A stretch of 64,000 bases of DNA from assembly GCA_965250285.1 (NCBI GenBank), contig OZ252299.1:4576001-4640000 (forward strand), read 5' to 3'. Shown here one piece after another: positions 32,389-46,697 of this stretch (the first letter of the stretch is position 1; each line of letters starts with the position of its first letter). The position numbers and the translations under genes are program-made. Below the pieces are notes generated by a model that was not told where the DNA came from, ran no database searches, and worked only from the letters and a program-made list of their open reading frames with translations. This stretch comes from Myxococcota bacterium. Its GTDB lineage: Bacteria; Myxococcota_A; UBA9160; UBA4427.

Positions 32389-33663
32389 ATGATCGACCCC
32401 CACACACTGGCCGAGCGCCGGTCGGACATCGAAGAGAGCTGTCGCAAGCGCGGCGTCGACGTCGACGTCGACGCGCTGATCCGTCTGCACGACGAAGTCA
32501 CCGCCCTGGTGACCGCGCAGAACGAGACGAATCGGCTGCGCAACGAGCACCAGAAGGCCGGCAAGCGCAAGATGAGCGATGACGAGCGCCAGGCGCACGT
32601 CGAGAAGGGGCGTGCCTTCAAGGACGACCTTTCCGCCATCGAGGAGAAGCTGCGCGGCGCGCAGACTCAGTTCGACGCCGCGCTCACCGGGATCCCCAAC
32701 CACACGCACCCCGACGTGCCGGCGGGCGGCGAAGAAGACTTCGCCGTGCTGCAGGATGGCAAGCCGGCGAGCTTCGACTTCGAACCCCGCGACCACCTCG
32801 CGCTCTGCGACCAGTGGGATCTGGTCGACTTCGAGAATGCGGCGCGCGTGGCCGGCCAGAAGTTCTACTACCTGAAGAACGAGGCAGCGCTGCTCGAGGT
32901 GGCGCTGCAGCGCTTTGCCCTCGAGGTGCTGCTCGAAGAAGGCTTCACCCCCGTCGTGACGCCCGACCTGGCGCGACCCGAGGTGGTCCAGGGGCTCGGC
33001 TTCAATCCCCGCGGTGAAGAGACGCAGATCTACTCGGTCGCCGATCACGACCTGTGTCTCGTGGGTACGTCCGAGATCACGCTGGGTGGTCTCTACGCCG
33101 ATCACATCTTCGACGAGGCCGACCTGCCGCTGCGCCTCGCGGGCATCTCGCACTGCTTCCGCACCGAGGCCGGCGCGCATGGACGCGAGAGCCGGGGTCT
33201 GTACCGGGTGCACCAGTTCACGAAGACCGAGATGTTCGTGTTCTGCAAGCCCGAGCACAGCGACGAAGAGCACGCGAACCTGCGACGCATCGAAGAGCAC
33301 ATCTTCGACGCGCTCGAGATTCCGTATCGCGTGATCGACGTCGCCGCGGGCGACCTCGGATCGCCGGCCTACCGCAAGTTCGATCTCGAGGCCTGGATGC
33401 CCGGTCGGGGTGAAGGCGGTGACTGGGGCGAGATCACGAGCACGTCGAACTGCACCGACTACCAGGCGCGGCGACTCAAGATCCGGTTCCGACGCGAGGG
33501 CAGCAAGAAGAACGAGCTCGTCCATACGCTGAACGGCACCGCGATCTCGAACGCGCGCGCGATCCTCGCCCTGCTCGAGAACCATCAGCAGGCCGATGGC
33601 ACGGTGAACATCCCCGACGCGCTCCGCCCCTGGGTCGGACGCGACCGCATCGGGCCGCGCTGA
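32389..33663 (+). CDS. serS: Seryl-tRNA synthetase
   Basis: N-terminal coiled coil, GTSE, CFRTEAG...GLYRVHQF (motif 2), EITSTSNCTDYQARRL, HTLNGT (motif 3). Confidence 0.97.
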   Translation: MIDPHTLAERRSDIEESCRKRGVDVDVDALIRLHDEVTALVTAQNETNRLRNEHQKAGKRKMSDDERQAHVEKGRAFKDDLSAIEEKLRGAQTQFDAALTGIPNHTHPDVPAGGEEDFAVLQDGKPASFDFEPRDHLALCDQWDLVDFENAARVAGQKFYYLKNEAALLEVALQRFALEVLLEEGFTPVVTPDLARPEVVQGLGFNPRGEETQIYSVADHDLCLVGTSEITLGGLYADHIFDEADLPLRLAGISHCFRTEAGAHGRESRGLYRVHQFTKTEMFVFCKPEHSDEEHANLRRIEEHIFDALEIPYRVIDVAAGDLGSPAYRKFDLEAWMPGRGEGGDWGEITSTSNCTDYQARRLKIRFRREGSKKNELVHTLNGTAISNARAILALLENHQQADGTVNIPDALRPWVGRDRIGPR

Positions 33664-33677
33664 GCGGGGCGGCGGCG

Positions 33678-35663
33678 ATGGCGAAGGCGGGCGGCTCCGG
33701 CTCCGACCAGGAAGGCGATGCCCGCGACCACGCGCCGCTCGTGGTCGGCACGGCCGGCCACATCGATCATGGCAAGACGTCGCTGATTCGCGCGCTCACC
33801 GGTCTCGACCTCGACCGCCTGCCCGAAGAGAAGGCGCGCGGCATCACGATCGATCTCGGCTTCGCGCCCCTCGATCTGCCCGGAGGGCGGCGCATCGGCG
33901 TGGTCGACGTGCCGGGGCACGAGGGACTCGTGCGCACCATGGTCTCGGGGGCGACGGGCATCGACGTCGTGCTGCTCGTCGTCGCCGCCGACGAAGGGGT
34001 CATGCCGCAGACGCGCGAGCACCTCGCGATCTGCGACCTGCTCGACCTGCGACACGGGCTGGTCGCGCTGACGCGGAGCGACCTCGTCGACGACGAAACC
34101 TGCGAGCTCGCCGAAGCCGAGATGCAGGATCTGCTCGCCGGGACGACCCTCGAAGCCGCGCCCATCCTCGCCGTCTCGGCCGTGACCGGCGACGGCATCG
34201 AGGCCCTGCGCGAGACCCTCGCCCGGGTCTGTGTCGAAGCGGCGCCCCGCACCCCACGACAAGGCCCTGCCCGACTGAACGTCGACCGCGCATTCACGAT
34301 GCGGGGCTTCGGCTCGGTGGTGACCGGCACGCTGGTCGGTTCGGATCTCACCGTCGGCGACGCGATCGAGCTGCTGCCCGAGGGCCACACCGCGCGCGTG
34401 CGCGGGCTTCAGCGACACGGCGACGCCGTCGATGCGGCCCACCCCGGTGCACGCTGCGCGGTCAATGTGCAGGGCGTCGAGCAAGACGCGCTGTCACGTG
34501 GGCAGGTCGTCGCGAAGCCCGGCACCGTCCCGACGACCGACGTCGCCGACGTCCACCTCCACTGGCTTGCGACCTCGCCCGAAGAAACGGGCGTCGTCGC
34601 CGTCGAGCTGCTCTGCGGCACGAGTGAACGACGCGCCCGCCTGGCGCCGATCGGCCCCGACGCGACGCTGCGGCCGGGCACCACCGGCTTCGCGCGGCTG
34701 CATGTCGACGGCCCGCCGATCGCCGTGTTGCCCGGCGAGCGATTCATCGTGCGCGGCTTCGCGCGACACGACCTGGCGGGCCACACCCTGGGCGGCGGCC
34801 GCTTCCTCGATATCGCCCCCCCGCGCCGCCGTCGCAGCGACCCCGTGCTCACACACGAGCTCGAAGCGCTCGACACCGGCGACGTCACCGAAGCCCTGGC
34901 GGTGCGCGTCGCGCGCGGCGGGCTCACGGGCGTCGACGAAGCAACGCTGCGCCTGCAGATGGGGATCGAGCGCGAGCCCCTGGCCGCGATCGTCCACGAG
35001 CTCGAGGCGAAGGACCGCATCGTGCGCACGGCCTCGTCGCGGCTCGTCCTGGCCGAAGCCATCACGCGACTCGCCGAGCGGCTGATCGAGGCGCTCGCGG
35101 CCTACCACGAGCGCGAGCCGCTGCGCCCGGGCATGTCGACCGCAGCGCTGCGCGCCACCCTCCCCGACAACGTCGCCCGCGATACGGCCGAGCTGACGCT
35201 CTCGCGCCTCGAGGCCGACGGGCGCATCGTCGCCGAAGGAGATCTCGTGCGGCAGCCCGCACATGCGCCAAGGCTCGACGACCGCGCACAGACGCTCGTC
35301 GGCCGCATCGCGAGCGAGAGCAGCGAAGCGGGCCTCGAGCCCCCCAGCCCGCGCGACCACTGCGCAGCACTCGGCATCGAGCTCACCGAGTACCGCGACC
35401 TGGTCGCGTATCTCGAACGCCAGGGCGCACTCGTGCGTGCGCCGGGCGATCTGTGGTTCGACGCCAGCTCCATCGATGCGCTGCGGGCGCGACTCGTCGC
35501 GCATCTCGAGGCCGAAGGCGAGATCGACACCCAGACCTACAAGAACCTGATCGGCACCACGCGCCGCACGGCCATGCCGCTGATGGAGCTCTTCGACGAG
35601 CTTCAGGTCACCCGCAGGCAGGGCGACGTGCGGGTGCTGCGCAGGGGCGCCGCGGGCAAGTAG
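33678..35663 (+). CDS. selB: Selenocysteine-specific translation elongation factor
   Basis: [36 protein letters not shown]-terminal winged-helix domains. Confidence 0.95.
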
Positions 35664-35669
35664 AGCGGT

Positions 35670-37145
35670 TCAACGAACCAGCCCGCTCAAGACGTCGGCC
35701 AGGCCGGGCGCGGGTCGCCAACCCAGATACAGCACGACGGCCGTGCACAGACCGAGCACGATCACCTCGGCTGTCGAGAGGCCGGCCGTCCGGCCCGTCG
35801 GCTTCGGCCGCGCAAACATCGCGATGGGCACGGCGAGCAGATAGCGCCAGCTCACGCCGACGCCGACGAGCGCGACGATCACCGGCCACACCAGGCCTTC
35901 GGCCACCGCGGCCGAGAAGAGGTTGTACATCGCCCAGAACCCGCCCGTCCCCGGCAGCCCGGCGAGCGCGAGCAGAAAGAGCGCGAGCGCCGTGGCCGCC
36001 ACTGGGCGCACGCGCGCGAGCCCGGCGAAGTCGTCGACCGTCTCGACATCGCGACCCCCGTGCGCGAACGAGGCCGTCAGGCCATGGGCGCCGAGCACGA
36101 TGAAGGCGTAGACGAAGACGTAGAAGAGCACGGCCTCGAACGCCTCGGTCGACGAGCAGGCCAGCCCGAGCGCCAGATGTCCCGAGTGCGCGATCCCCGC
36201 GCACGCGAGCATGCGGCGCACCGAACGCGCAACGAGGGCCAGACCGTGCCCGACCACGATGCTCGCGACGGCCAGCACCTGAAAGAGCCCCGTCACCGGA
36301 GCCAGGCCTTCGGGGATCGCCTCATCGAGCAGTCGCAGCAGCACGATCACTGCGGTCGTCGGCATCGCGACCGCGAGATAGCCGGCGGTCACGTTCGGCG
36401 CGCCCTGGAAGACGTCGGAGACCCACTGGTGGAACGGAAAGAGCGCGAGCTTGAAGAGCAGCCCGCAGAGCAGCAGCCCGAGCCCGGCGAGGCCGAGCCA
36501 GTCGCTGCCATCGAGCCCAGCCCAGAGCGCGCCATAGCCAAGCTCGCCGGTCGCCCCGTAGAGCAGCGCCATGCCGAAGAGCATCAGACCGCTCGCGAAG
36601 CCACCGGTGAGGTGCAGCTTCAGACCGGCCTCGAGGCTCTCGGCGCGGCGCACGTCGTACGCGGCGAGCAGCGACAGGCAGATCGACGAGAGTTCGAGAC
36701 CGACGTAGAGAAACGCGAGATGGCCGGCCCCGATCGCGACGAACATGCCCGCAGAGGCGAGGAGGACGAGCGCGTGAAAGGGGCCCTGCTCGAGCCGCGC
36801 GGCCGATAGCATCGTGACCGAGAGCCACAGCGTCGCGAGCGCGGCCGAGGCGAGAATCAACGTACCGACGCTCGTCAGCCGATCGACGAGGAAGAGCCCT
36901 GTACGCACGTCGAAGGCCGGCTCGACCGCGCCGACGAGCGAGCTCCAGGCCGAGAGCATGACCGCGCCGAGGGCGACCGAGCTCGTGAGGGCGAGCAATG
37001 GACCGCGCCGTGAAGGCGCGCCTTCGACGCCGCCGCGTCGCCGCCGGACCGACGCCGCGCCGTCGATCAGCAGCGCGACCAGCGCACCGAGCGTCACGAA
37101 GAGCACGGGCGCAAAGACGTCCCAGCGCGGGATCATGTCGATCAC
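35670..37145 (-). CDS. nuoN: Divergent NuoN-like antiporter-like subunit
   Basis: GLELSS, EAGLK, FKLALFPFHQWVSDVFQGAP, RRMLA...IAH, LAGLPGTGGF. Confidence 0.8.
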   Translation of the reverse strand: MIDMIPRWDVFAPVLFVTLGALVALLIDGAASVRRRRGGVEGAPSRRGPLLALTSSVALGAVMLSAWSSLVGAVEPAFDVRTGLFLVDRLTSVGTLILASAALATLWLSVTMLSAARLEQGPFHALVLLASAGMFVAIGAGHLAFLYVGLELSSICLSLLAAYDVRRAESLEAGLKLHLTGGFASGLMLFGMALLYGATGELGYGALWAGLDGSDWLGLAGLGLLLCGLLFKLALFPFHQWVSDVFQGAPNVTAGYLAVAMPTTAVIVLLRLLDEAIPEGLAPVTGLFQVLAVASIVVGHGLALVARSVRRMLACAGIAHSGHLALGLACSSTEAFEAVLFYVFVYAFIVLGAHGLTASFAHGGRDVETVDDFAGLARVRPVAATALALFLLALAGLPGTGGFWAMYNLFSAAVAEGLVWPVIVALVGVGVSWRYLLAVPIAMFARPKPTGRTAGLSTAEVIVLGLCTAVVLYLGWRPAPGLADVLSGLVR

Positions 37146-37185: not shown

Positions 37186-38820
37186 TCAACGGGCCTCCGG
37201 CCGAACGTCGGCGCTTGCCTGTGCGTCGTCGAACTCGGCAGGGGCGCCGCGCAGCTCCATCACGTGAAGCACCTCGAGCACCGCGGGCTCGACACGTCGG
37301 AGCATCGGGTTCGGCATCACGCCGAGCACCACCAGCGAGACGATCAACGCGAGCACGCCGAATCGCTCGCCCCAACCGAGATCGATCAAGCCGCGGTTCT
37401 CCGGATTCTCGACCGGCCCGAGCGCGACCGCGCGGTAGCCGCGCAGGAGACATGCACCGGTGAGCAGCACCCCGAGTAGCGCGACGAGCGTGAGCACGGG
37501 CGAGACCGCGAACCCGCCTGCCAGCACGAGCAGCTCGCCCACGAAGCCGAGAGTCCCGGGGATCCCCGACATCGCGAAGAGGGCCGTCGCGAGCAGCAGC
37601 GAGAACACCGGCATCGGCTTCGCGAGGCCCCCGTACGCCGCGAGCACGGTCGAGCCTCGCCGCTCGACCAGCAGGTTCACCAGGGTGAGCAGCGCCGCGC
37701 TTGCGAGCGCCACGCTCCAGCCATGCACGAGCGCGCCGACGATGCCGTGCTCGCCGAGCGTGAAGACGCCGAGCGTGACGAGCCCGAGCGACGCGGTGTG
37801 CGCGTAGGCCTGTAGTGTGCGCAGGTCACTCTGCGCGCCGGCGACGAGCGCGCCGTAGGCCAGCCCGACGACCGAGAGCATGCTCACGAAGGGTGCGACG
37901 GCAGCGGCGCCCTCGGGCAGCAGCGGCAGGCCGACTCGTACCACGAGATAGATCCCCACGACCCCCTGCAGCACGTCGAGCAGCACGAGGCCGTCCGGCG
38001 GCGCCTGCGCGGCGGCGCGCGCCGACCACACGTGGAAGGGGAAGGCGCGCAGTCGCATCGCGATCGAAACGAGCAGCGCGACGAAGAGTGTCGACTGCGT
38101 CGCCCAGCCGGGTCCGGTCGTCGGCACGTCGACGTCGAGGAGACCGGGCGCTGCGTAGCCTGCTCCGCTCACGAGATCGAACACCCAGACGTGCAGCTGT
38201 TCATAGCCGAGGCGGTGTACGACGATCAAGACGAAGAGCATGCCCATGCTGCCGAGTGCGGCCGGGATCAACCACGCGTAGGCCGCCGCCACCGGTCGCT
38301 CGCCGCCCCAGCTCACGATCATGAAGCCGATGGGCAGGAGCATCAGCGTCCAGAACAAGTGCATCTGCATCACGTTCATCGAGAGCAGCGCACCCAGCAT
38401 CAGAGACTGCAAAGCGAGCACCCGCGCGACGGCGCCGGCCGTGAAACGCGAGGCATCACCGGGCGTCGACCAGCATGCGGTCGGCACGATGAAGAGCACC
38501 AGCAAAACGGGGAAGAGCGAGAGACCGTCGACCGCGAAGTAGAAATGGAAGCCGTACTGCGGCAGCCACTCCCAACGCTCGACGTGCTGTAGCCCGAGCA
38601 GCTCGGGATCGAAGCCTGACCACAACCCCGCCGCAGCGACCGCGAACTGCAGCGTCGTGAAGCCGATCCCGAAGCGTCGCCACACGCCCACGGGCGCGCG
38701 CTCGACACCGACGGCGCGGGCGACCAGCGCGTTCAGCGCCAGCACGAGCGCGGCCGCAACCAGCGGCGCGAGCACGAGCGCCGTCAGCCATCCGCCGAAC
38801 GTGTCGGCCCCGGCTCCCAT
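37186..38820 (-). CDS. nuoM: Divergent NuoM-like antiporter-like subunit
   Basis: AVDGLS, WGGE, FPFHVW, YGGLAKPMP, GIPGTLGFVGE. Confidence 0.8.
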   Translation of the reverse strand: MGAGADTFGGWLTALVLAPLVAAALVLALNALVARAVGVERAPVGVWRRFGIGFTTLQFAVAAAGLWSGFDPELLGLQHVERWEWLPQYGFHFYFAVDGLSLFPVLLVLFIVPTACWSTPGDASRFTAGAVARVLALQSLMLGALLSMNVMQMHLFWTLMLLPIGFMIVSWGGERPVAAAYAWLIPAALGSMGMLFVLIVVHRLGYEQLHVWVFDLVSGAGYAAPGLLDVDVPTTGPGWATQSTLFVALLVSIAMRLRAFPFHVWSARAAAQAPPDGLVLLDVLQGVVGIYLVVRVGLPLLPEGAAAVAPFVSMLSVVGLAYGALVAGAQSDLRTLQAYAHTASLGLVTLGVFTLGEHGIVGALVHGWSVALASAALLTLVNLLVERRGSTVLAAYGGLAKPMPVFSLLLATALFAMSGIPGTLGFVGELLVLAGGFAVSPVLTLVALLGVLLTGACLLRGYRAVALGPVENPENRGLIDLGWGERFGVLALIVSLVVLGVMPNPMLRRVEPAVLEVLHVMELRGAPAEFDDAQASADVRPEAR

Positions 38821-38821
38821 T

Positions 38822-40864
38822 TCAGAGCACTCCGCCGAGCGTCAGCCCGAGCACCACGAGCACCGCCCCCACCAACATCGATGCGAGCACACCCTGCGCA
38901 TAGCCGGCCTGGCCGTAGCGATCGAAGAGGCCGCCCACCCAGTCGGCCAGCTTCGCAGGGGCCGTCTCGAGCACGAACACGAGCAGGCGCTCTCCGATCG
39001 GCCCCCGCGCGAGCTGCCGCGCCACGGCCGAGCTCGGCACGATCACCAGCCAGCCGAAGACATTGTCGGGATCGAGCGCGTCGACGACGCGGCGCCCCGG
39101 CCCTCGAAACCGGTTGCGCAGATCGAGCACCGGCTCGGCCCGATTGCGAAACAACAGCCGGGCGCCGACCGCGCCGGCGGCCATCGCGAGCACCTGCAGG
39201 CCGATCCACGTCGACTGCCGACCCGGCTCACCGCGCGGCGGATGAACGTCGGGCAGCACGGGCTCGAAGAACACCGACAGACTGTTCATCTGCTCGATCT
39301 CGAGCGCGTCACCGAAGATCTGAGACACGCCGATCACACCGCCGAACGCGCACAGGACGGCGAGCGCGCCGAGGCTCCAGAGCGAGGGCGTGCGCGGCTC
39401 CCAGGCGAGGCGACGTCGCGCGGGGTCAAACGAGCTGCGCACGGGAAACACCAGGTAGTAGAGACGGATCGTCGTCAAGGCCGTGAAGAACACGGTCAGC
39501 AGCACGAGCACGCACAGCGTCAGATGCCCGGGCAGCTCGACCGCGCGGTCGGCGGCGTCGAGCACCTGCTCGATCGAGAAGAACGCGATCGTCGGCGGCA
39601 GCCCCGCCATGGTCAGCGCACCCACGAGCGTGAAGGCCTGGGGCCACACCATCGCGAGGCCCAGCGGCTGCAGCTTCGTGCGATCGTGCTGATGCCCGCG
39701 CGCCTTGCTCGCGGTCGCGATCCCGAGAAACAGAAGCGCCTTGGCACACGCATGCGCCGTGACGTGAAAGAGCGCAACGTCGTAGGCACCGAGCCCGACG
39801 GCGAGCGCCGCGATCGAGAGCTGGCTGCCCGTCGTCCACGTCAGGATCGCGCGGCCGTCGTCTTCGGCGAGCGAGGCGAGCACGAAGAGCAGCGCGCCCG
39901 CGGCCGCCACCCAGCAGAGCGCCGTCTCGAGCAACGGCACCGCCTCGAACAGAAAGCCGACCCGCACGAGCAGCAGAATGCCGGTGCACGGCATCGCGAC
40001 CGCCTGCATGAACGCCGACGCCGGCGAGGGCGCGACCGAGGCGGCGCGTAGACCGAACATGAAGGGCAGCACGAAGAGGCGGGACGCCGCGGCCAGCGCG
40101 AAGAGCAGCCCGGTGTAGACGGCCGGCGCGACTCCCGGTGCCTCCCCCTCGTGGGCAGGCGGCGGGACGGCGAGCAGCGTGTCGCGGGCGGCGCGGAGGC
40201 TCGACCAGGACAGGTCGGCGCCGCCGCCATCGACGAGCTGCCAGAAGACGCTCAGGAGCCCGGCGAGGAAGAGCGCGTCGCCGGTCCGTTGCCGCAGCGA
40301 CACCTTCTGGAGCGCCGCGCGCCGATCGGCTTCGCCGTACCAGAAGCCGACGAGCAGCCGACCGAAGAGGCCGCACGACACCCACGCGGCGAACGCCAGC
40401 ACCATGTCGTCGGCGAGCACGAAGAGCAGGACGGCCGCGAGCAACGCACACGCGTAGGCGCAGAAGCGCTGCAAGCCGCCGTCGTCGTGGTCATCGCGCG
40501 CCATGTGGATGCCCGCGTGGATCTGGATCGCGAGACCGACGTAGCTCGCGACGAGGCAGAGCAGAGCGGCGACCGGGTCGAATCGCAGGACGAACGCGAC
40601 ATCGAGCGCTTCGGCGCCGACGCCGAGCCCGAACCAGCTGCCGACGCGATCGACGATCGGCACCTCGATGCCGCCGCTCACGAGCCGTGCAAAGAAGAGG
40701 GTCGAGAGCAGCGCCGGCACGGCGAAACCCGCGGCCGCGACCCAGGCGATCGTGCGATCGGCGAGCTGACGTCGCAGCACCCCGCTGGCGATGCCAAGGG
40801 CGAGGGCGACGACGAGCGGCGCAGCGGGGATCCACACCAGATCAGCGGGGCCGGTCCAGCTCAT
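38822..40864 (-). CDS. nuoL: Divergent NuoL-like antiporter-like subunit
   Basis: LLVGFWY, RTGD, SQL, FHVTAHACAKALLFL, C-terminal transverse-helix region ending QAGY. Confidence 0.8.
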   Translation of the reverse strand: MSWTGPADLVWIPAAPLVVALALGIASGVLRRQLADRTIAWVAAAGFAVPALLSTLFFARLVSGGIEVPIVDRVGSWFGLGVGAEALDVAFVLRFDPVAALLCLVASYVGLAIQIHAGIHMARDDHDDGGLQRFCAYACALLAAVLLFVLADDMVLAFAAWVSCGLFGRLLVGFWYGEADRRAALQKVSLRQRTGDALFLAGLLSVFWQLVDGGGADLSWSSLRAARDTLLAVPPPAHEGEAPGVAPAVYTGLLFALAAASRLFVLPFMFGLRAASVAPSPASAFMQAVAMPCTGILLLVRVGFLFEAVPLLETALCWVAAAGALLFVLASLAEDDGRAILTWTTGSQLSIAALAVGLGAYDVALFHVTAHACAKALLFLGIATASKARGHQHDRTKLQPLGLAMVWPQAFTLVGALTMAGLPPTIAFFSIEQVLDAADRAVELPGHLTLCVLVLLTVFFTALTTIRLYYLVFPVRSSFDPARRRLAWEPRTPSLWSLGALAVLCAFGGVIGVSQIFGDALEIEQMNSLSVFFEPVLPDVHPPRGEPGRQSTWIGLQVLAMAAGAVGARLLFRNRAEPVLDLRNRFRGPGRRVVDALDPDNVFGWLVIVPSSAVARQLARGPIGERLLVFVLETAPAKLADWVGGLFDRYGQAGYAQGVLASMLVGAVLVVLGLTLGGVL

Positions 40865-41244
40865 CCCGCCTGCTCCTGTGCAGGCGTCGCGCTGCCTTCT
40901 GCGCCCCGCCCGGCGTGACCGAGACGGTTCGCGTCATCGACGTCGGCGCTGCCGCGTCGGCGCACGACGGCCAGCGCGAGTCCCATGCCGACCAGGAGCT
41001 GCACCACGCCGACGACGAGCACGATGAAGGCAAAGGCCTGGCCTTCGAGCGTGGGTGGCGCGCCGGCGCCGAGCGCGCGACCCGCCCACATGCGATTGAA
41101 ACCGACGAACGCGAGTGCGCTCGCGAACGTCACCAGCTGCAGACCGAAGAGCACGACGACGGCGTGACGCCGGCGAATCGATCCGACCAGACCGAGCGCA
41201 AACAGCAGGATCGCGAGACCGAGGACGTGGTCGACACCGACCAT
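40861..41244 (-). CDS. nuoK: Divergent NuoK-like subunit
   Basis: LFALGLVG...RR, GQAFAF, RRRGSADVDD; three TM segments; TGATG overlap with nuoJ. Confidence 0.8.
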   Translation of the reverse strand: MVGVDHVLGLAILLFALGLVGSIRRRHAVVVLFGLQLVTFASALAFVGFNRMWAGRALGAGAPPTLEGQAFAFIVLVVGVVQLLVGMGLALAVVRRRGSADVDDANRLGHAGRGAEGSATPAQEQAG

Positions 41245-41753
41245 CAACGATCTCCCTCGTCGGCCAGCACGCGACTCGCGACGAGACCCACGAGCAGGAT
41301 CAGCGAGAGACCGACGAGCGGCGCCGCAAACTCGCGGTAGAGGGTCTCACCGAGGGCGAACACGCTCCCGAGCCCCGCGTCGACGGGGAGGTCGGGCCGC
41401 GGCGTGCTCTCGAGCGTGAGCAGCACGACGCCGGCGAGCGATGCAGCGGCGATGACGCCGAGGGCATTCAGGACGCGCCGACGCACCGAGCGCGCGGGCA
41501 GGGGCTCACTCTCGAGATCGACGAGCAACACGACGAAGAGCAGACCGACGCCGGCCGCCCCGATCACGAGGAGCAGCTGCGCGACGCCGAGGAAGGGCGC
41601 GGCGAGCAGCGTGAACAGACCCGCCAGCGCCAGCTGACAGAGCACCGCGCCCATGGCCGCCCCCACGGTCGTCCGCGCCGTCAGGATCAAGACGAGCGCG
41701 CCGACCACCGCGACGGCGGCGAGCCCCTGGAAGCCGATCGACGCCGCGCTCAC
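41244..41753 (-). CDS. nuoJ: Divergent NuoJ-like subunit
   Basis: LAAPFLGVAQ...GA...LFVVLL, ALGETLY; five TM segments; GTGA overlap with nuoH. Confidence 0.75.
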   Translation of the reverse strand: MSAASIGFQGLAAVAVVGALVLILTARTTVGAAMGAVLCQLALAGLFTLLAAPFLGVAQLLLVIGAAGVGLLFVVLLVDLESEPLPARSVRRRVLNALGVIAAASLAGVVLLTLESTPRPDLPVDAGLGSVFALGETLYREFAAPLVGLSLILLVGLVASRVLADEGDR

Positions 41754-42715
41754 GAGAGCCCCGGACGCGCGACGAGCCACCAGCCGGTCAGAAAGACGTT
41801 CACGATCGAGAGCGGCACGAAGAGCCGAAAGCAGAGAAAGCTGACCCGCGCTTCGGGCAGCGGCGCCATGCGGCTCCCGACCCACCGGATGAAGCCGAAC
41901 ACGAGCAGCGTCTTGACCAGAAAAGAGGTCGCATGCAGCGCGGCACACAGCAGCGCGCCGACCGTGAGTCCATAGCTCTTCGTCAGCACGGGCTCGAGCG
42001 TCGATTCGGCGAGCCACGGAATCGACCATCCACCGAGACCCAGCGTGACGACGTAGCCGGCGAGCAGAAGCGTGTTCACGAAGTCGGCGACGACGGCGTT
42101 GCCCAGCCGCAGGCCGCTGCCCTCGGCGTGCAGCGAAGTGAGTGACTCGGCGCTCGCCGCTGCGAGGTCGAAGGGCGGCAGGCGCAGCGCACCGAGCCCG
42201 CAGATCAAGACGAGCCCCACCGCCAGCGGGTTCAGCAGCACGCCCCAGAGCGGCAGGCGCACTGTGATGCGACCCGCTTCGGGCCATGCGAAGCCGGCGG
42301 TCGAGACGATCTCGGCGGGCGTGGTCGTCGTGTCTTGTCGGGCGGCGATGTCGACGAGTTCGAGCGAGCCGTACACGAGGGCGAGCGGCAGGGTGGCCAG
42401 CGCGAGGGCCACACCGTACGAGAGCGTCTGCGCACCGGCGCCGAGGCAGGCTCGGCGCGCGGCTTCGTCGCGCACCGACCAGCCCATTGCGGCGAACCCG
42501 AGCGCCGACATACAGACGAGCGCGACGGGCACGAGGATCGACGCGTCGACGTCGGCGACGACGAGCGACACGGGCCGCTCGCCGACCAGATACGACGAAC
42601 CGAACGGGAGCACACCCAGGCTGGCGACGGCGACGACGACCGTCCAGGCCGGACCGAGCCGATCGAGCCAGGGGATCGTGCGTGCCGACGTCGGCTGCGT
42701 CGCATCGGCGCTCAC
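41750..42715 (-). CDS. nuoH: Divergent, N-terminally truncated NuoH-like subunit
   Basis: VLPFG, GWS, AQTLSY, PFDL, LGGW; GAGGGGG RBS before the GTG at 42715. Confidence 0.75.
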   Translation of the reverse strand: MSADATQPTSARTIPWLDRLGPAWTVVVAVASLGVLPFGSSYLVGERPVSLVVADVDASILVPVALVCMSALGFAAMGWSVRDEAARRACLGAGAQTLSYGVALALATLPLALVYGSLELVDIAARQDTTTTPAEIVSTAGFAWPEAGRITVRLPLWGVLLNPLAVGLVLICGLGALRLPPFDLAAASAESLTSLHAEGSGLRLGNAVVADFVNTLLLAGYVVTLGLGGWSIPWLAESTLEPVLTKSYGLTVGALLCAALHATSFLVKTLLVFGFIRWVGSRMAPLPEARVSFLCFRLFVPLSIVNVFLTGWWLVARPGLS

Positions 42716-42758
42716 GCCAACCCCCTCGGAGCGTGCGGTGAACCAACGGCATTCGCGT

Positions 42759-43094
42759 TCATGGGCCGTCGTCCTCGAGGCCACCTCGGGTGATCAGGTG
42801 TGCGAACCCGACGAGCAGCGGGGCCGTGATCAGCGCCGCGACCCCGAGCCCCGCCCGGCCGAGCGTCTCGACCCGCGCAGCCCAGGCCGCCAGCAGCAGA
42901 ACCAGGGCCCCGAAGGCGACGAACAGCGCGGCGTAGACCTGGAAACGCGCGAGCGCGCGCAGCGAGTCGACCGGCGCGTCGGGCGGATCGCGGCGTGGGC
43001 GCCGGGGCGCGACGCGCACGTGAAAGAGCACGAGCAGGCCAGCGATCAGGCCGCCGACGGCGGTCAGCGTGAGCAGCGCCGCGTAGTCGCCCAT
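42759..43094 (-). CDS. nuoA: Divergent NuoA-like subunit
   Basis: Three TM segments, AALF...WA...LG, terminal RGGLE (cf. KGALEW); GGAGG RBS; first gene of the operon. Confidence 0.7.
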   Translation of the reverse strand: MGDYAALLTLTAVGGLIAGLLVLFHVRVAPRRPRRDPPDAPVDSLRALARFQVYAALFVAFGALVLLLAAWAARVETLGRAGLGVAALITAPLLVGFAHLITRGGLEDDGP

Positions 43095-43342
43095 GCGCCT
43101 CCCCGCGCCCGCACGGATCGGTCTGCGCACACGGGTCGGCAGACGCCGAGCGTGGGCAGCGTGCGTGCATTCGGGGGGTTCGAGGGGGGACGACGAGACA
43201 GGCCTCGTCGTCGAAAAACGTAGCCCGGCGAGCCCCGAAGCGTCAACGAGATTGGGCGGCTCCGCGGGCGGGCGGCGTGGCGGACGGGCTCGGTGCGACC
43301 CGTGCACGGTCATTCGAGGCGGGGTGTGGTATCTCGGCGGGG

Positions 43343-44356
43343 ATGAATGTGCCCATCACCGTCCTCGGCTCCGGCAGCTTCGGCACCTGCCTCGCGATCC
43401 TCTGCGCGCGCGAGAACCCGGTTCGATTGTGGTCGCGATCGCAGAAGGTCGTCGACGCGATCAACGAGACGCGTCGCAATCCGCAGTACCTGACTGAATT
43501 CGAGCTGCCCGAGTCGGTCGAGGCCACGGCCGATCTGGCCACGGCGCTCGAGGGCAGTGAGATGATCGTCATCGCCGTGCCGAGTCACGGGTTGCGTGAG
43601 GTGATGGCCAAGGCCGCCCCGTTCATCCCCGACGGCGCGATTCTCGTCTCGACCGTCAAGGGCATCGAGTACGAGACCGGGATGACGATGCATCAGGTGC
43701 TCGAGGACGTGGTGCCCGAGACGCACCATCGCAAGATCGTGGCGCTCTCGGGCCCCTCTTTCGCCCGCGAGATCGCGGAGCACCGCGCCACCGTCGTCAC
43801 CGTCGCCTGCGCCGACGAGGCCTTCGCCATCGCCGTGCAGGAGACGCTCTCCTGCCCCTGGTTTCGCTGTTACTCGAGCACCGACGTGATGGGCGTCGAG
43901 ATCGGCGGCGCCCTCAAGAACGTGATCGCGATCGCCGTGGGCATGAGCGACGGCATGGACGGTTCGCTCAACAGCCGCGCGGCGCTCATGACCCGGGGCC
44001 TGGCCGAGATCGCGCGCCTCGCCGAGCGGCTCGGCGGCGATCCGACGACGCTGCACGGACTCTCGGGCATGGGCGATCTCGTGCTGACGTGCACCGGCGA
44101 CCTCTCGCGCAATCGGCGGGTCGGCCTCGCGCTCGGCCGAGGTCAGCGCCTCGAGGAGATCATTCGCGACCTGGGCGAGGTGGCCGAGGGGGTGCGGACG
44201 ACCCAGGCGGCCTGCCGGCTCGCGGCGCGCGTCGGCGTCGAGCTGCCGATCTGCGAGATGGTGCGGCAGGTGATCGACGGCGAGATCACGCCGACCCGCG
44301 CGGGCACCGAGCTCATGAACCGCCAGCTCGGCAGCGAGCGAGGCGGCGGCCGCTAG
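43343..44356 (+). CDS. gpsA: NAD(P)H-dependent glycerol-3-phosphate dehydrogenase
   Basis: GSGSFG, LSGPSFA, GGALKNVIAI, GMGDLVLTC, SRNRRVG. Confidence 0.96.
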   Translation: MNVPITVLGSGSFGTCLAILCARENPVRLWSRSQKVVDAINETRRNPQYLTEFELPESVEATADLATALEGSEMIVIAVPSHGLREVMAKAAPFIPDGAILVSTVKGIEYETGMTMHQVLEDVVPETHHRKIVALSGPSFAREIAEHRATVVTVACADEAFAIAVQETLSCPWFRCYSSTDVMGVEIGGALKNVIAIAVGMSDGMDGSLNSRAALMTRGLAEIARLAERLGGDPTTLHGLSGMGDLVLTCTGDLSRNRRVGLALGRGQRLEEIIRDLGEVAEGVRTTQAACRLAARVGVELPICEMVRQVIDGEITPTRAGTELMNRQLGSERGGGR

Positions 44357-44470
44357 CGGCGTTCGAAGCGAGACAGCGTGCAGCGCGTCACTTTGCGACC
44401 GTGTTCGCCAATCGAAAACCGAGCCGGAAGCGCTGCCGCAAGTCCCCTCCAACGCTACGGTTTCGCGATC

Positions 44471-44487
44471 ATGAAATCGAATTTCAA
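44471..44487. promoter_or_regulatory. Delta-proteobacterial-type Fur box candidate
   Basis: ATGAAATCGAATTTCAA resembles WTGAAA-N5-TTTCAW and lies at the start of feoAB. Confidence 0.55.
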
Positions 44488-44764
44488 CGAGGGCGACGCG
44501 GGCGAGCGCGTCTTCTCGCTCGATCAGGCTCAGCCGGGCACCGAGGTGGTGGTCGAACGCATCGATCTCGACCATGCCCCGGTCGGCCGTCGTCTCGTCG
44601 ACCTGGGCCTGCTCCCCGAGACGCGCCTGAAGGTCGTGCGGCGCGCCCCGCTCGGCGACCCCACGGAGTTCGCCCTGCGCGGCTACCGGCTGTGTCTCCG
44701 CCGCAGCGACGCGGCCCAGATCTGGGTGCGCGAGAGCCCCGCCCCCTCACAGGACGACGCGTGA
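44471..44764 (+). CDS. feoA: Ferrous iron transport protein A
   Basis: RRLVDLGLLP...APLGDP...LRGYRLCLRRSDA. Confidence 0.92.
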   Translation: MKSNFNEGDAGERVFSLDQAQPGTEVVVERIDLDHAPVGRRLVDLGLLPETRLKVVRRAPLGDPTEFALRGYRLCLRRSDAAQIWVRESPAPSQDDA

Positions 44765-44816
44765 TCGACGCCCTGCTCGAAGCCCGCGCATGGCCCCTGG
44801 TGCAGAGGACGATCGC

Positions 44817-46697
44817 TTGAGCGACGCGACGCTCACTCTCGGACTGGTCGGCAGCCCGAACGCGGGCAAGACGACCCTCTTCAACGCGCTGACCGGTCTG
44901 CGCGCGAAGGTGGGGAACTACCCCGGCGTCACGGTCGAGCGGCGCGAGGGACGGGTTCAGCTCGGAGATCACGCTGCGCGTCTGATCGACCTGCCGGGCA
45001 CCTACTCGCTCGATCCGCTGAGCCCCGATGAAGCCGTGGTCAACGAGGTGCTCGACGGACGCATCGACGGCCTGGCGGCCCCCGAGGCCCTGGTCGTCGT
45101 CGCCGACGCGTGCTCGCTCGAGCGATCGCTGCTGCTGGTCGGGCAGGTGCTGCGGCGTGAGCAGCCGACGGTGCTGGTGCTGACGATGTACGACGAGCTC
45201 GCCGCGCGCGGGGGGGAGCTCGACCTTCCGCGCCTCGAAGACGCCCTCGGCGTGCCGGTGGTGCCCGTGGTCGGCCACAAGGGCGTCGGCCTCGAGCGGC
45301 TGCGCACCCTGCTCGGCGATCCGAGCGGATGGTCTCGCCCCGCCCTGCTGCCGCCCGAGACGACCGAAGAGCGGGCGGCGTGGGTCTCGTCGATCCTCGA
45401 CCACGTCGTGACCGACGCGCCGCGCGACCACGACCTGACCGAGCGCATCGACCGCGTCGTCCTGCACCCGGTGGCCGGCCCCCTGCTGTTCGTGGCCGTG
45501 ATGGTGACGTTCTTCCAGCTGATCTTCGCCTGGGCGAGCCCCGCGATGGACGCGATCGACGCAGGCGTCGGCGTGCTGGCGTCGGGGGCGCGCGGCGTGC
45601 TGCCACCGGGGCTCGTCGCCGACTTCGTCGCCGATGGCCTCATCGCGGGGGTCGGGTCGGTCGTGATCTTCGTCCCGCAGATCACGCTGCTCTTCGGGTT
45701 GCTCTACCTGCTCGAGGACGTGGGCTACATGGCACGCGCCGCCTTCGTCGTCGACCGCGCCATGGGTCGCATCGGCCTCGAGGGCCGCGCGTTCGTCGCG
45801 CTGCTCTCGTCGTACGCCTGCGCGGTGCCGGGCATCATGGCGACCCGCACGATCCCCTCGCCCCGAGACCGTCTGGTCACGATCCTCGTCGCCCCCTTGA
45901 TGACGTGCTCGGCGCGGCTGCCGGTATACGCGCTGCTGATCGGCGCATTCGTGCCCGAGCGCACGCTCGCGGGCTTCATCGGCCTGCAGGGCCTCGTGCT
46001 CTTCGCGCTCTATTTCGTCGCGCCGGTCTTCGCGATGATCGTTGCGGCCCTGCTCAAGCGGACGATCGCGCGCAGCGACGCGATGCCCTTCGTGATGGAG
46101 CTGCCCACGTATCGGGTGCCCACCTTCAAGCTCTGGGGCGCGCAGCTGTGGCGCAGTGTCTCGGCCTTCTTGAAGCGCGCAGGCACGATCATCCTGCTCG
46201 CCTCGATGGTGCTCTGGGTGCTGCTCACGTTCCCCCACGTCGAGCCGCCCGCCGGGCTGGACGAAGAGCAGGCCGCTTCATACGCCCTCGAGAACAGCTT
46301 CGCCGGACGGGTCGGACATGCCATCGAGCCCGCCATCGAACCGCTCGGCTTCGACTGGAAGATCGGCGTCGGACTCGTCGCCAGCCTCGCCGCACGCGAG
46401 GTCATCGTGGCGACGCTGGCGCAGATCTACGCCGCCACAGACGAAGACGCGTCGCTCCGCGGCGCGATCCGCAGGGACATCGATCCGCGCACGGGCGAGC
46501 GCGTCTTCGGCCCGGCCACCGTCGGGTCACTGCTCGTCTTCTTCGTGTTCGCGCTGCAGTGCGTCTCGACGATCGCGATCATCGCGCGCGAGACGAACTC
46601 GTGGCGCTGGCCCTTGTTCGCGTTCACGTATCTGCTCGTGCTCGCCTACGGGGCATCGTTCGTCACCTATCGCGTGGTCAGCGCGTTGACCGCGTGA
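44817..46697 (+). CDS. feoB: Ferrous iron transport protein B
   Basis: GSPNAGKTT, GNYPGVTVE, DLPGTYSL, CSARLPVY; TTG start after GAGGA (alternative ATG at 44790). Confidence 0.95.
   Translation: MSDATLTLGLVGSPNAGKTTLFNALTGLRAKVGNYPGVTVERREGRVQLGDHAARLIDLPGTYSLDPLSPDEAVVNEVLDGRIDGLAAPEALVVVADACSLERSLLLVGQVLRREQPTVLVLTMYDELAARGGELDLPRLEDALGVPVVPVVGHKGVGLERLRTLLGDPSGWSRPALLPPETTEERAAWVSSILDHVVTDAPRDHDLTERIDRVVLHPVAGPLLFVAVMVTFFQLIFAWASPAMDAIDAGVGVLASGARGVLPPGLVADFVADGLIAGVGSVVIFVPQITLLFGLLYLLEDVGYMARAAFVVDRAMGRIGLEGRAFVALLSSYACAVPGIMATRTIPSPRDRLVTILVAPLMTCSARLPVYALLIGAFVPERTLAGFIGLQGLVLFALYFVAPVFAMIVAALLKRTIARSDAMPFVMELPTYRVPTFKLWGAQLWRSVSAFLKRAGTIILLASMVLWVLLTFPHVEPPAGLDEEQAASYALENSFAGRVGHAIEPAIEPLGFDWKIGVGLVASLAAREVIVATLAQIYAATDEDASLRGAIRRDIDPRTGERVFGPATVGSLLVFFVFALQCVSTIAIIARETNSWRWPLFAFTYLLVLAYGASFVTYRVVSALTA

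Follow-up and report, generated by a model that had tools for sequence, protein, structure and literature searches.

The DNA analysed here, hereafter the window, is a stretch of 64,000 nucleotides from a Myxococcota bacterium (GenBank assembly GCA_965250285.1, contig OZ252299.1, positions 4,576,001 to 4,640,000 of the forward strand). It carries a minus-strand operon, running from 43094 to 35670, of seven closely packed genes for membrane proteins that Pfam and NCBIfam assign to NuoA, H, J, K, L, M and N, the membrane arm of respiratory complex I. This arm has lost its electron-input genes and most of its proton-relay residues, and it is still under selection. We call the analysed genome G000, its sister species G001 and the other relatives Gnn, with genera as gnn and families as fnn. 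G000 is a single contig of 6.25 Mb with a completeness of 95%. The features of the locus are as follows (window coordinates; relay positions in E. coli numbering).

42759..43094, minus strand: nuoA-like gene, 111 amino acids; the FECG loop is gone and D79/E81 are G62/L64 (Pfam, residue alignment).
42712..42762, minus strand: mini open reading frame (ORF) of 16 codons; its ATG overlaps with the stop codon of nuoA, and its stop codon with the GTG of nuoH; not present in G001 (sequence, read contigs).
42721..42727, minus strand: ribosome-binding-site-like GAGGGGG, 5 nt ahead of the nuoH start (direct reading).
41750..42715, minus strand: nuoH-like gene, 321 amino acids, without helix 1 and the amphipathic helix; E157->G, E216->A, E218->S, E241->D.
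41244..41753, minus strand: nuoJ-like gene, 169 amino acids; Y59->V.
40861..41247, minus strand: nuoK-like gene, 128 amino acids; E36->Q, E72->Q.
38822..40864, minus strand: nuoL-like gene, 680 amino acids, full length; E144->V, K229->R, H254->Q, K305->R, K399->I.
37186..38820, minus strand: nuoM-like gene, 544 amino acids; E144->T, K234->R, H248->A, K265->V, H322->S, H348->V; E407 retained.
35670..37145, minus strand: nuoN-like gene, 491 amino acids; E133, K217 and H305 retained; K247->P, K395->M.

All seven frames of this 7.4-kb arm are open, and the gene overlaps are retained. The best NCBIfam match of each gene is to the family for which it is named here, and only K and M exceed the curated NCBIfam cut-off. 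NuoL, M and N are full-length, with the lateral helix present, and the nuoL-like product retains R175, D178, H334, H338 and K342. Upstream of nuoA, gpsA is divergent, and at the other end selB lies on the opposite strand with its end 7 nt from nuoN (convergent), so that the nuo unit stands alone. The flanks, serS-selB (32389-35663, plus strand) and gpsA-feoA-feoB (43343-46697, plus strand), recur in most relatives and mark the ancestral operon site. A polar effect on serS as the reason for retention of the operon is rejected because both serS and selB are encoded on the other strand. A promoter scan gave no sigma-70 match, and a terminator-like hairpin with a T run lies on the operon strand 130 nt upstream of nuoA (43222-43239, minus strand; two overlapping calls versus 0.1 expected).

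In complex I structures, helix 1 and the amphipathic helix of NuoH frame the quinone entrance. The initial annotation, made from the sequence alone, held that this part is missing, that translation starts just before helix 2 from a ribosome-binding site and a GTG at 42715, and that there is no upstream space to encode the rest; each of these points is borne out. The GAGGGGG at 42727-42721 precedes the GTG, the ORF (42715-41750) encodes 321 amino acids versus a median of 386 in 11 intact relatives (about 65 residues fewer), and its match to the Pfam profile NADHdh begins at position 64 of 298; the protein starts just ahead of helix 2. The stop of nuoA and the start of nuoH are only 43 nt apart (42758-42716), and no helix-1-like segment other than NuoA is found in three frames between gpsA and the nuoH start. 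In G001, nuoH has the same start, directly overlapping the nuoA stop.

The helix count, which had been proposed to be seven instead of eight, agrees with this picture. The AlphaFold2 model of NuoH (18-row alignment; pLDDT 83, pTM 0.84) contains seven long helices, which we read as transmembrane, and hydropathy analysis gives seven segments in NuoH of G000, G001 and G025 versus eight to nine in the five other NuoH proteins tested. All of the best 50 Foldseek matches listed are NuoH, NdhA or ND1 (TM-score 0.62-0.77). A complex prediction for NuoH and NuoA scored 0.30 against a mark of 0.32, with the controls not folded.

A misassembly or homopolymer error at 42715-42762 is rejected, since short-read contigs are identical across the junction. 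A contig of run X1, which may be the source of G000 itself, covers 41600-43500 with 0 differences, and contigs of runs X2 (42674-43143) and X3 (42282-42835) cross the junction, also with 0 differences; the three runs belong to one study. The 16-codon ORF may relay translational coupling between nuoA and nuoH. One added base would fuse it to NuoH, and no such base is present in the short-read contigs.

The motif changes reported at first are also present: NuoH E157 is G101, so that SYE reads SYG; the acidic loop between helices 5 and 6 reads ALRLPPFDLAAASAESLTS, in which E216 and E218 are replaced and D213 and E220 retained; and NuoA is altered as listed above. What does not hold is the statement that the losses fall exactly on the quinone site and the peripheral-arm interface. 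According to the accessible part of a preprint (bioRxiv 10.64898/2026.01.27.702182), NuoH E157 and NuoA D79 belong to the E-channel, which relays protons to NuoK E36, and so lie outside the docking surface; relay residues are lost from J, K, L, M and N of G000 as well.

We scored 33 relay positions, most of them taken from that preprint and from PMC13073174. G000 retains 10 of the 33, versus 32-33 in 11 fully scored intact relatives. The residue tables leave out G031 (many frameshifts), M and N of G008, G011 and G037, and L of G037 (contig ends or runs of N). As a control, the core residues are canonical wherever aligned in 36 of 40 loci, the exceptions being three loci of the eroded kind and one partial locus. 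In the pages of PMC13073174 that we used, NuoN E133 and K217 are dispensable, and K247 and K395 essential, for pumping in E. coli; G000 keeps the dispensable pair and has lost the essential one. The G000 arm likely cannot pump protons.

The residues that survive across eroded arms are mostly Gly and Pro, with a few salt-bridge residues. Invariant Gly/Pro positions are retained more often than invariant polar or charged positions in H (0.63 versus 0.29/0.39), L (0.67 versus 0.38/0.43), M (0.81 versus 0.49/0.62) and N (0.87 versus 0.47/0.69). At relay sites there is an excess of E-to-Q (24/84 versus 17/116) and H-to-Q (23/47 versus 4/67) changes, a comparison that is descriptive only, as the rows are related. 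NuoN E133 and H224, NuoM H241 and R273, and NuoL D82, R115 and R431 do not change at all, and conservation in the C-terminal region of NuoM is comparable among eroded (0.53-0.58) and intact (0.48-0.62) arms.

The genome contains a single copy of NuoH, and thus this arm is its only complex I. The absence of nuoB, C, D and I, claimed at first from the locus, extends to the whole of G000: we found no member of the NuoD family (including the hydrogenase/NuoD family) or the NuoB family and no NuoC, and NuoI queries match only short ferredoxin-like stretches. Intact relatives have nuoA-E-F-G-H-J-K-L-M-N beside gpsA; their nuoB and nuoI-C-D genes form a second locus, grouped around lipB and an E2 gene. 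Since nuoEFG lies between nuoA and nuoH in these relatives, the gap between nuoA and nuoH in G000 is the nuoEFG site, and not that of nuoBCDI. In five of the six genomes tested (G000, G019, G025, G032 and G007), the genes that flank nuoB and nuoICD at the second locus now adjoin each other, leaving both sites empty; in the sixth, G001, the B site is empty and the contig then ends in lipB.

The sole NuoF-like gene of G000, at 5.25 Mb, is an E-F fusion that lies next to a large G-like gene and is 38% identical to native NuoF; we infer that it belongs to a formate-dehydrogenase-type enzyme. The only other antiporter-like subunit in G000 is encoded outside the window (G000:C1:5070781-5075057), where a NuoL-like gene is followed by a large gene for a soluble protein with a CIDVRSE motif. 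We take this pair to be the DabB/DabA (DUF2309) inorganic-carbon pump.

These observations bear on the strong form of the initial annotation, in which the arm is an active proton pump remodelled for a new input module that replaces NuoBCDI. The loss of helix 1 does follow the loss of B, C, D and I, and did so twice (see below), and L, M and N are full-length with their lateral helix. However, the E-channel and all three antiporter-like subunits have lost their relay residues, no extra gene is present inside the operon or at the emptied B and ICD sites, and the genome offers no gene of the NuoD or NuoB family. We consider a new-input pump very unlikely.

The history of the arm was examined in a core comparison of 61 genomes and a class-wide scan of 130. 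Within the core set the genomes form stages: intact; G011; G013; genomes without nuoEFG and with drifted B, I, C and D; the genera g1, g7 and g19, without B, I, C and D; and genomes from which the arm is deleted. In G011 (L075, G011:C13), E, F, G, H and K are canonical but NuoL lacks E144, R175, K342, K399 and D400, and this complex I is possibly an early, partly uncoupled stage. G013 (L047, G013:C10) has full-length nuoF and nuoG and no nuoE; the FMN/NADH motifs of NuoF are lost, and the N-terminal iron-sulfur (Fe-S) cysteines of NuoG are kept. Likewise, drifted NuoB and NuoI retain their Fe-S cysteines, and the quinone-site motifs of NuoD are changed. Most genomes with drifted B, I, C and D already lack SYE, the acidic loop, FECG and FDxE, and the proposed match between loss of these motifs and loss of nuoBCDI is not upheld; G002, where E157 and E81 are still present, represents an early stage.

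In the genomes with a deleted arm, gpsA directly adjoins selB or serS, and one of them, G012, carries an Mrp-like operon elsewhere, on a different contig. G014, G022, G029, G033 and G034 have a second, canonical complex I elsewhere alongside the eroded native arm; this second complex was probably re-acquired.

Helix 1 of NuoH is absent in both genomes of g1 and both of g19, and present in all four assessable genomes of g7 and in all 14 assessable genomes with drifted native NuoD; this count excludes G029, where nuoH is broken, and G027, where it is cut by a contig end. The expected recurrence of the truncation in orthologs is therefore found in G001, G025 and G019, but not in g7, which also lacks B, C, D and I. 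Similarly, the proposed coupling to loss of the quinone module stands in part: truncation occurs only in lineages without B, C, D and I (two of the three genera, and none of the 14 genomes with drifted NuoD), and is not obligatory there. The approximately unbiased (AU) test rejects one origin of the g1 and g19 truncations (RpoB, p=0.0004; NuoLMN, p<1e-10). On the sequence evidence, helix 1 was lost convergently, after the quinone module had gone. The truncation is not a by-product of nuoEFG deletion, as the 13 assessable genomes that lack EFG and have drifted NuoD all keep helix 1.

The eroded arms descend vertically from intact operons that occupy the same position between gpsA and selB. In the RpoB trees (FastTree; IQ-TREE on 16 of 41 rows), eroded arms stand beside intact sisters in f9 and f12, and within f1 they do so in two or three places; the NuoLMN tree broadly tracks the species tree, with the long-branched G047 and G059 drawn together. 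We estimate that eroded arms arose three to four or more times, a count that is an estimate because it rests on tree shape. The class-wide scan adds low-scoring NuoH in 22 of the 23 genomes of g14 (four examined in detail), in G135, and in G066, which belongs to another order.

Between G000 and G001, the ratio of nonsynonymous to synonymous changes (dN/dS) over the seven genes is 0.24 (interval 0.21-0.27; 2406 codons, dS 0.64), and there are no internal stops, although about 97 would be expected at this divergence under neutrality. By gene, the values are 0.16 for A, 0.39 (0.29-0.51) for H, 0.29 for J, 0.17 for K, 0.21 for L, 0.28 for M and 0.15 for N, versus 0.11-0.25 for five control housekeeping genes (neighbouring or from the second locus). 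In the close pair G036/G032, six genes have values of 0.14-0.25 and A has 0.62, and in the intact pair G042/G057 the values are 0.07-0.18; intervals refer to G000/G001, and values for other pairs are point values. From the low dN/dS and the zero stops it follows that selection is real; for H and A it is somewhat weaker. A pseudogene cluster is rejected (no stops or frameshifts, and a dN/dS far from 1), in agreement with the earlier view that the changes are not random decay.

Selection of this kind could also act on a trapped relic without benefit, in which the genes are expressed and changes that cause misfolding or orphaning are purged until one clean deletion removes them all. This idea accounts for the clean whole-operon deletions in G012, G015 and G045, for the mainly fold-holding nature of the retained residues, and for the long stems leading to G000/G001 (1.1-1.3 changes per site); in addition, G029 has a broken nuoH and an L/M frame that runs on, which may be an assembly error. 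However, nuoEFG, nuoB and nuoICD were deleted cleanly and the arm has no downstream dependants, yet 7.4 kb of it persists; low-scoring NuoH persists throughout most of g14; dN/dS equals that of housekeeping genes; and silencing of the promoter would remove the cost. A relic is, in our judgement, rather improbable.

Eroded arms are associated with the Na+-pumping NADH:quinone oxidoreductase (NQR). NqrB, the only nqr gene searched, is present in G000, and it is above the cut-off in 26 of 27 eroded-arm genomes and in all three arm-deleted genomes. Among the 19 genomes without full NqrB, 15 have canonical NuoH only, three could not be judged, and G014 combines an eroded arm with a second canonical complex I. 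As the relatives are not independent, we claim no statistical test for this association. The idea that a change to a Na+-type ATP synthase was the trigger is rejected, because the c-subunit motif is nearly uniform over 49 rows, intact and eroded, and does not discriminate between them; a search with a c-subunit pattern gave no match. The c subunit of G000 (G000:C1:4894779-4894964, L181) and its relatives has Q...ESIAIY in intact and eroded genomes alike, the Q being M in g17 and g19. This motif presumably supplies four of the five Na+ ligands.

The association with NQR raises the idea of a redox-independent exchanger of Na+ (or another cation) and H+, or a gated leak, that acts by a non-canonical route centred on NuoN Glu133 and Lys217 and couples the Na+ gradient built by NQR to that of protons. 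All 23 eroded arms that were scored retain the NuoN pair. The parts of two preprints available to us place the equivalent MrpD pair, Glu137/Lys219, on a proposed Na+ route in Mrp (bioRxiv 10.1101/2022.01.24.477492) and describe Na+/H+ exchange by the mammalian P-module without the N-module (bioRxiv 10.1101/2023.05.30.542932). Furthermore, MrpB (PF04039) was not found in G000, where MrpE, F and G were not searched for. On the other hand, the Glu/Lys pair of the MrpA-like NuoL and the residues of K and J are lost, and K217 is Arg in 10 of the 23 arms. At the position of ND4 R340, G000 has Thr and the relatives vary. We take R340, equivalent to NuoM R369, to be the residue whose change in Leber hereditary optic neuropathy is reported to impair exchange. 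G000 already has five other antiporter genes (one NhaA-like and four of the cation:proton antiporter (CPA) family). MrpB occurs in 17 of 27 eroded-arm genomes (one a weak match), and the arm as a replacement for a missing Mrp is not supported. Exchange by this arm appears unlikely.

The reading that we favour, to a degree slightly better than even, is that the arm is native, stripped of its electron input and most of its relay residues, and persists as a non-pumping membrane scaffold that is assembled and kept for a structural role. Assembly of the G000 arm in the membrane is likely, and the scaffold could possibly hold other respiratory complexes, such as the alternative complex III, whose ActD gene is present in G000. 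Under this reading, coupling may have become dispensable once NQR could oxidise NADH, a causal step that we propose for the observed association. Catalytic residues would then have eroded over the whole complex while, as seen in the relatives, fold-holding Gly and Pro, salt bridges and Fe-S cysteines stayed. Next, nuoEFG would usually have been deleted between nuoA and nuoH, and nuoB and nuoICD later from the second locus, an order suggested by the intermediates. Without anything to dock on NuoH, its helix 1 and its amphipathic helix would have been dispensable, and they were cut off twice independently.

Several points weigh against this reading. The term "scaffold" is reached by exclusion, and assembly, expression and a partner are all presumed. 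The arm is not essential everywhere, as a clean deletion has removed it from the corresponding site of G012, G015 and G045 (L238, L240 and L237). NuoH (0.39, 0.29-0.51) and, in some pairs, NuoA (0.39-0.62) have looser dN/dS values than the controls, and dN/dS is here a simple pairwise count in DNA of 69% GC. The constancy of NuoN E133 in 23 of 23 eroded arms, with K217 always K or R, is not obviously needed by a pure scaffold. Finally, about 13 relatives have NQR together with an intact complex I, so that NQR permits the change but does not force it.

Compared with the P-module of complex I (E. coli, PDB 7z7v and 7p7l; cyanobacterial NdhA, 6l7o), G000 has the same seven genes in the same order and the same NuoH fold. 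It differs in the absence of NuoB, C, D and I and of the NuoE, F, G module, in a seven-helix NuoH without the eight-helix quinone entrance, and in the replacement of 23 of 33 relay residues. The Mrp Na+/H+ antiporter has homologous antiporter-like subunits and no redox module, and its MrpD-type Glu/Lys pair survives in NuoN; unlike Mrp, G000 lacks MrpB and has NuoH and NuoA, its NuoL has lost the MrpA-type pair (E144V/K229R), and its NuoM has E144T/K234R.

Operons that contain only nuoAHJKLMN are described, in the passages available, for Salinispora (PMC3314556), marine Streptomyces and Kocuria (PMC6676996), and Bdellovibrionota (PMC13147790). The actinobacterial ones are presented there as extra copies beside a complete complex I and are read as pumps, that of Salinispora being regarded as horizontally acquired (PMC3314556, PMC6676996), and Peredibacter also has a complete operon (PMC13147790). 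The gene set is shared with G000, whereas the G000 arm is the only copy, native and residue-stripped, and those passages contain no residue analysis. In E. coli, as far as the excerpted text goes, pumping-impaired nuo* mutants were selected for persistence (PMC8795404); G011 resembles such a stage, although the mutants keep electron transfer and canonical residues. In the literature searched, with subscription journals and supplements outside the search, we found no description of a residue-stripped, still-selected arm. Beyond the published partial operons, the genomes compared here contribute intermediate stages, emptied sites, a truncation of helix 1 that evolved twice, and cases in which the arm was cleanly deleted. 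Complex I-like enzymes of the eleven-subunit, "headless" type lack NuoEFG, as in the Bacteroides NUO that occurs beside NQR. The intermediate relatives share this gene content (A-H-J-K-L-M-N with B, I, C and D), with eroded quinone-site and relay residues, and G000 lacks B, C, D and I as well.

Complex I is treated as a redox-driven pump whose parts are valueless once uncoupled. In several independent lineages, however, 2,400 codons remain at housekeeping-level selection after loss of the electron arm and the relay, which makes it testable whether the membrane arm holds supercomplexes, exchanges Na+ and H+, or shapes the membrane. These genomes also provide natural variants for structural work, namely NuoH without helix 1 and relay sites with E-to-Q, K-to-R and H-to-Q changes, and they serve as a warning for annotation, as nuo matches in them do not imply a working complex I. 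More tentatively, and with the balance of probability against it, the arm may have an ancient additional role that depends on neither electron input nor the relay; takeover by NQR would then have led to repeated paring down to a "pseudo-complex I" of seven subunits, in which NuoH has seven helices, and the same role may operate in intact bacterial and mitochondrial complex I. If this is true, the lineage preserves every stage of the process and would point at a hidden function of the membrane arm.

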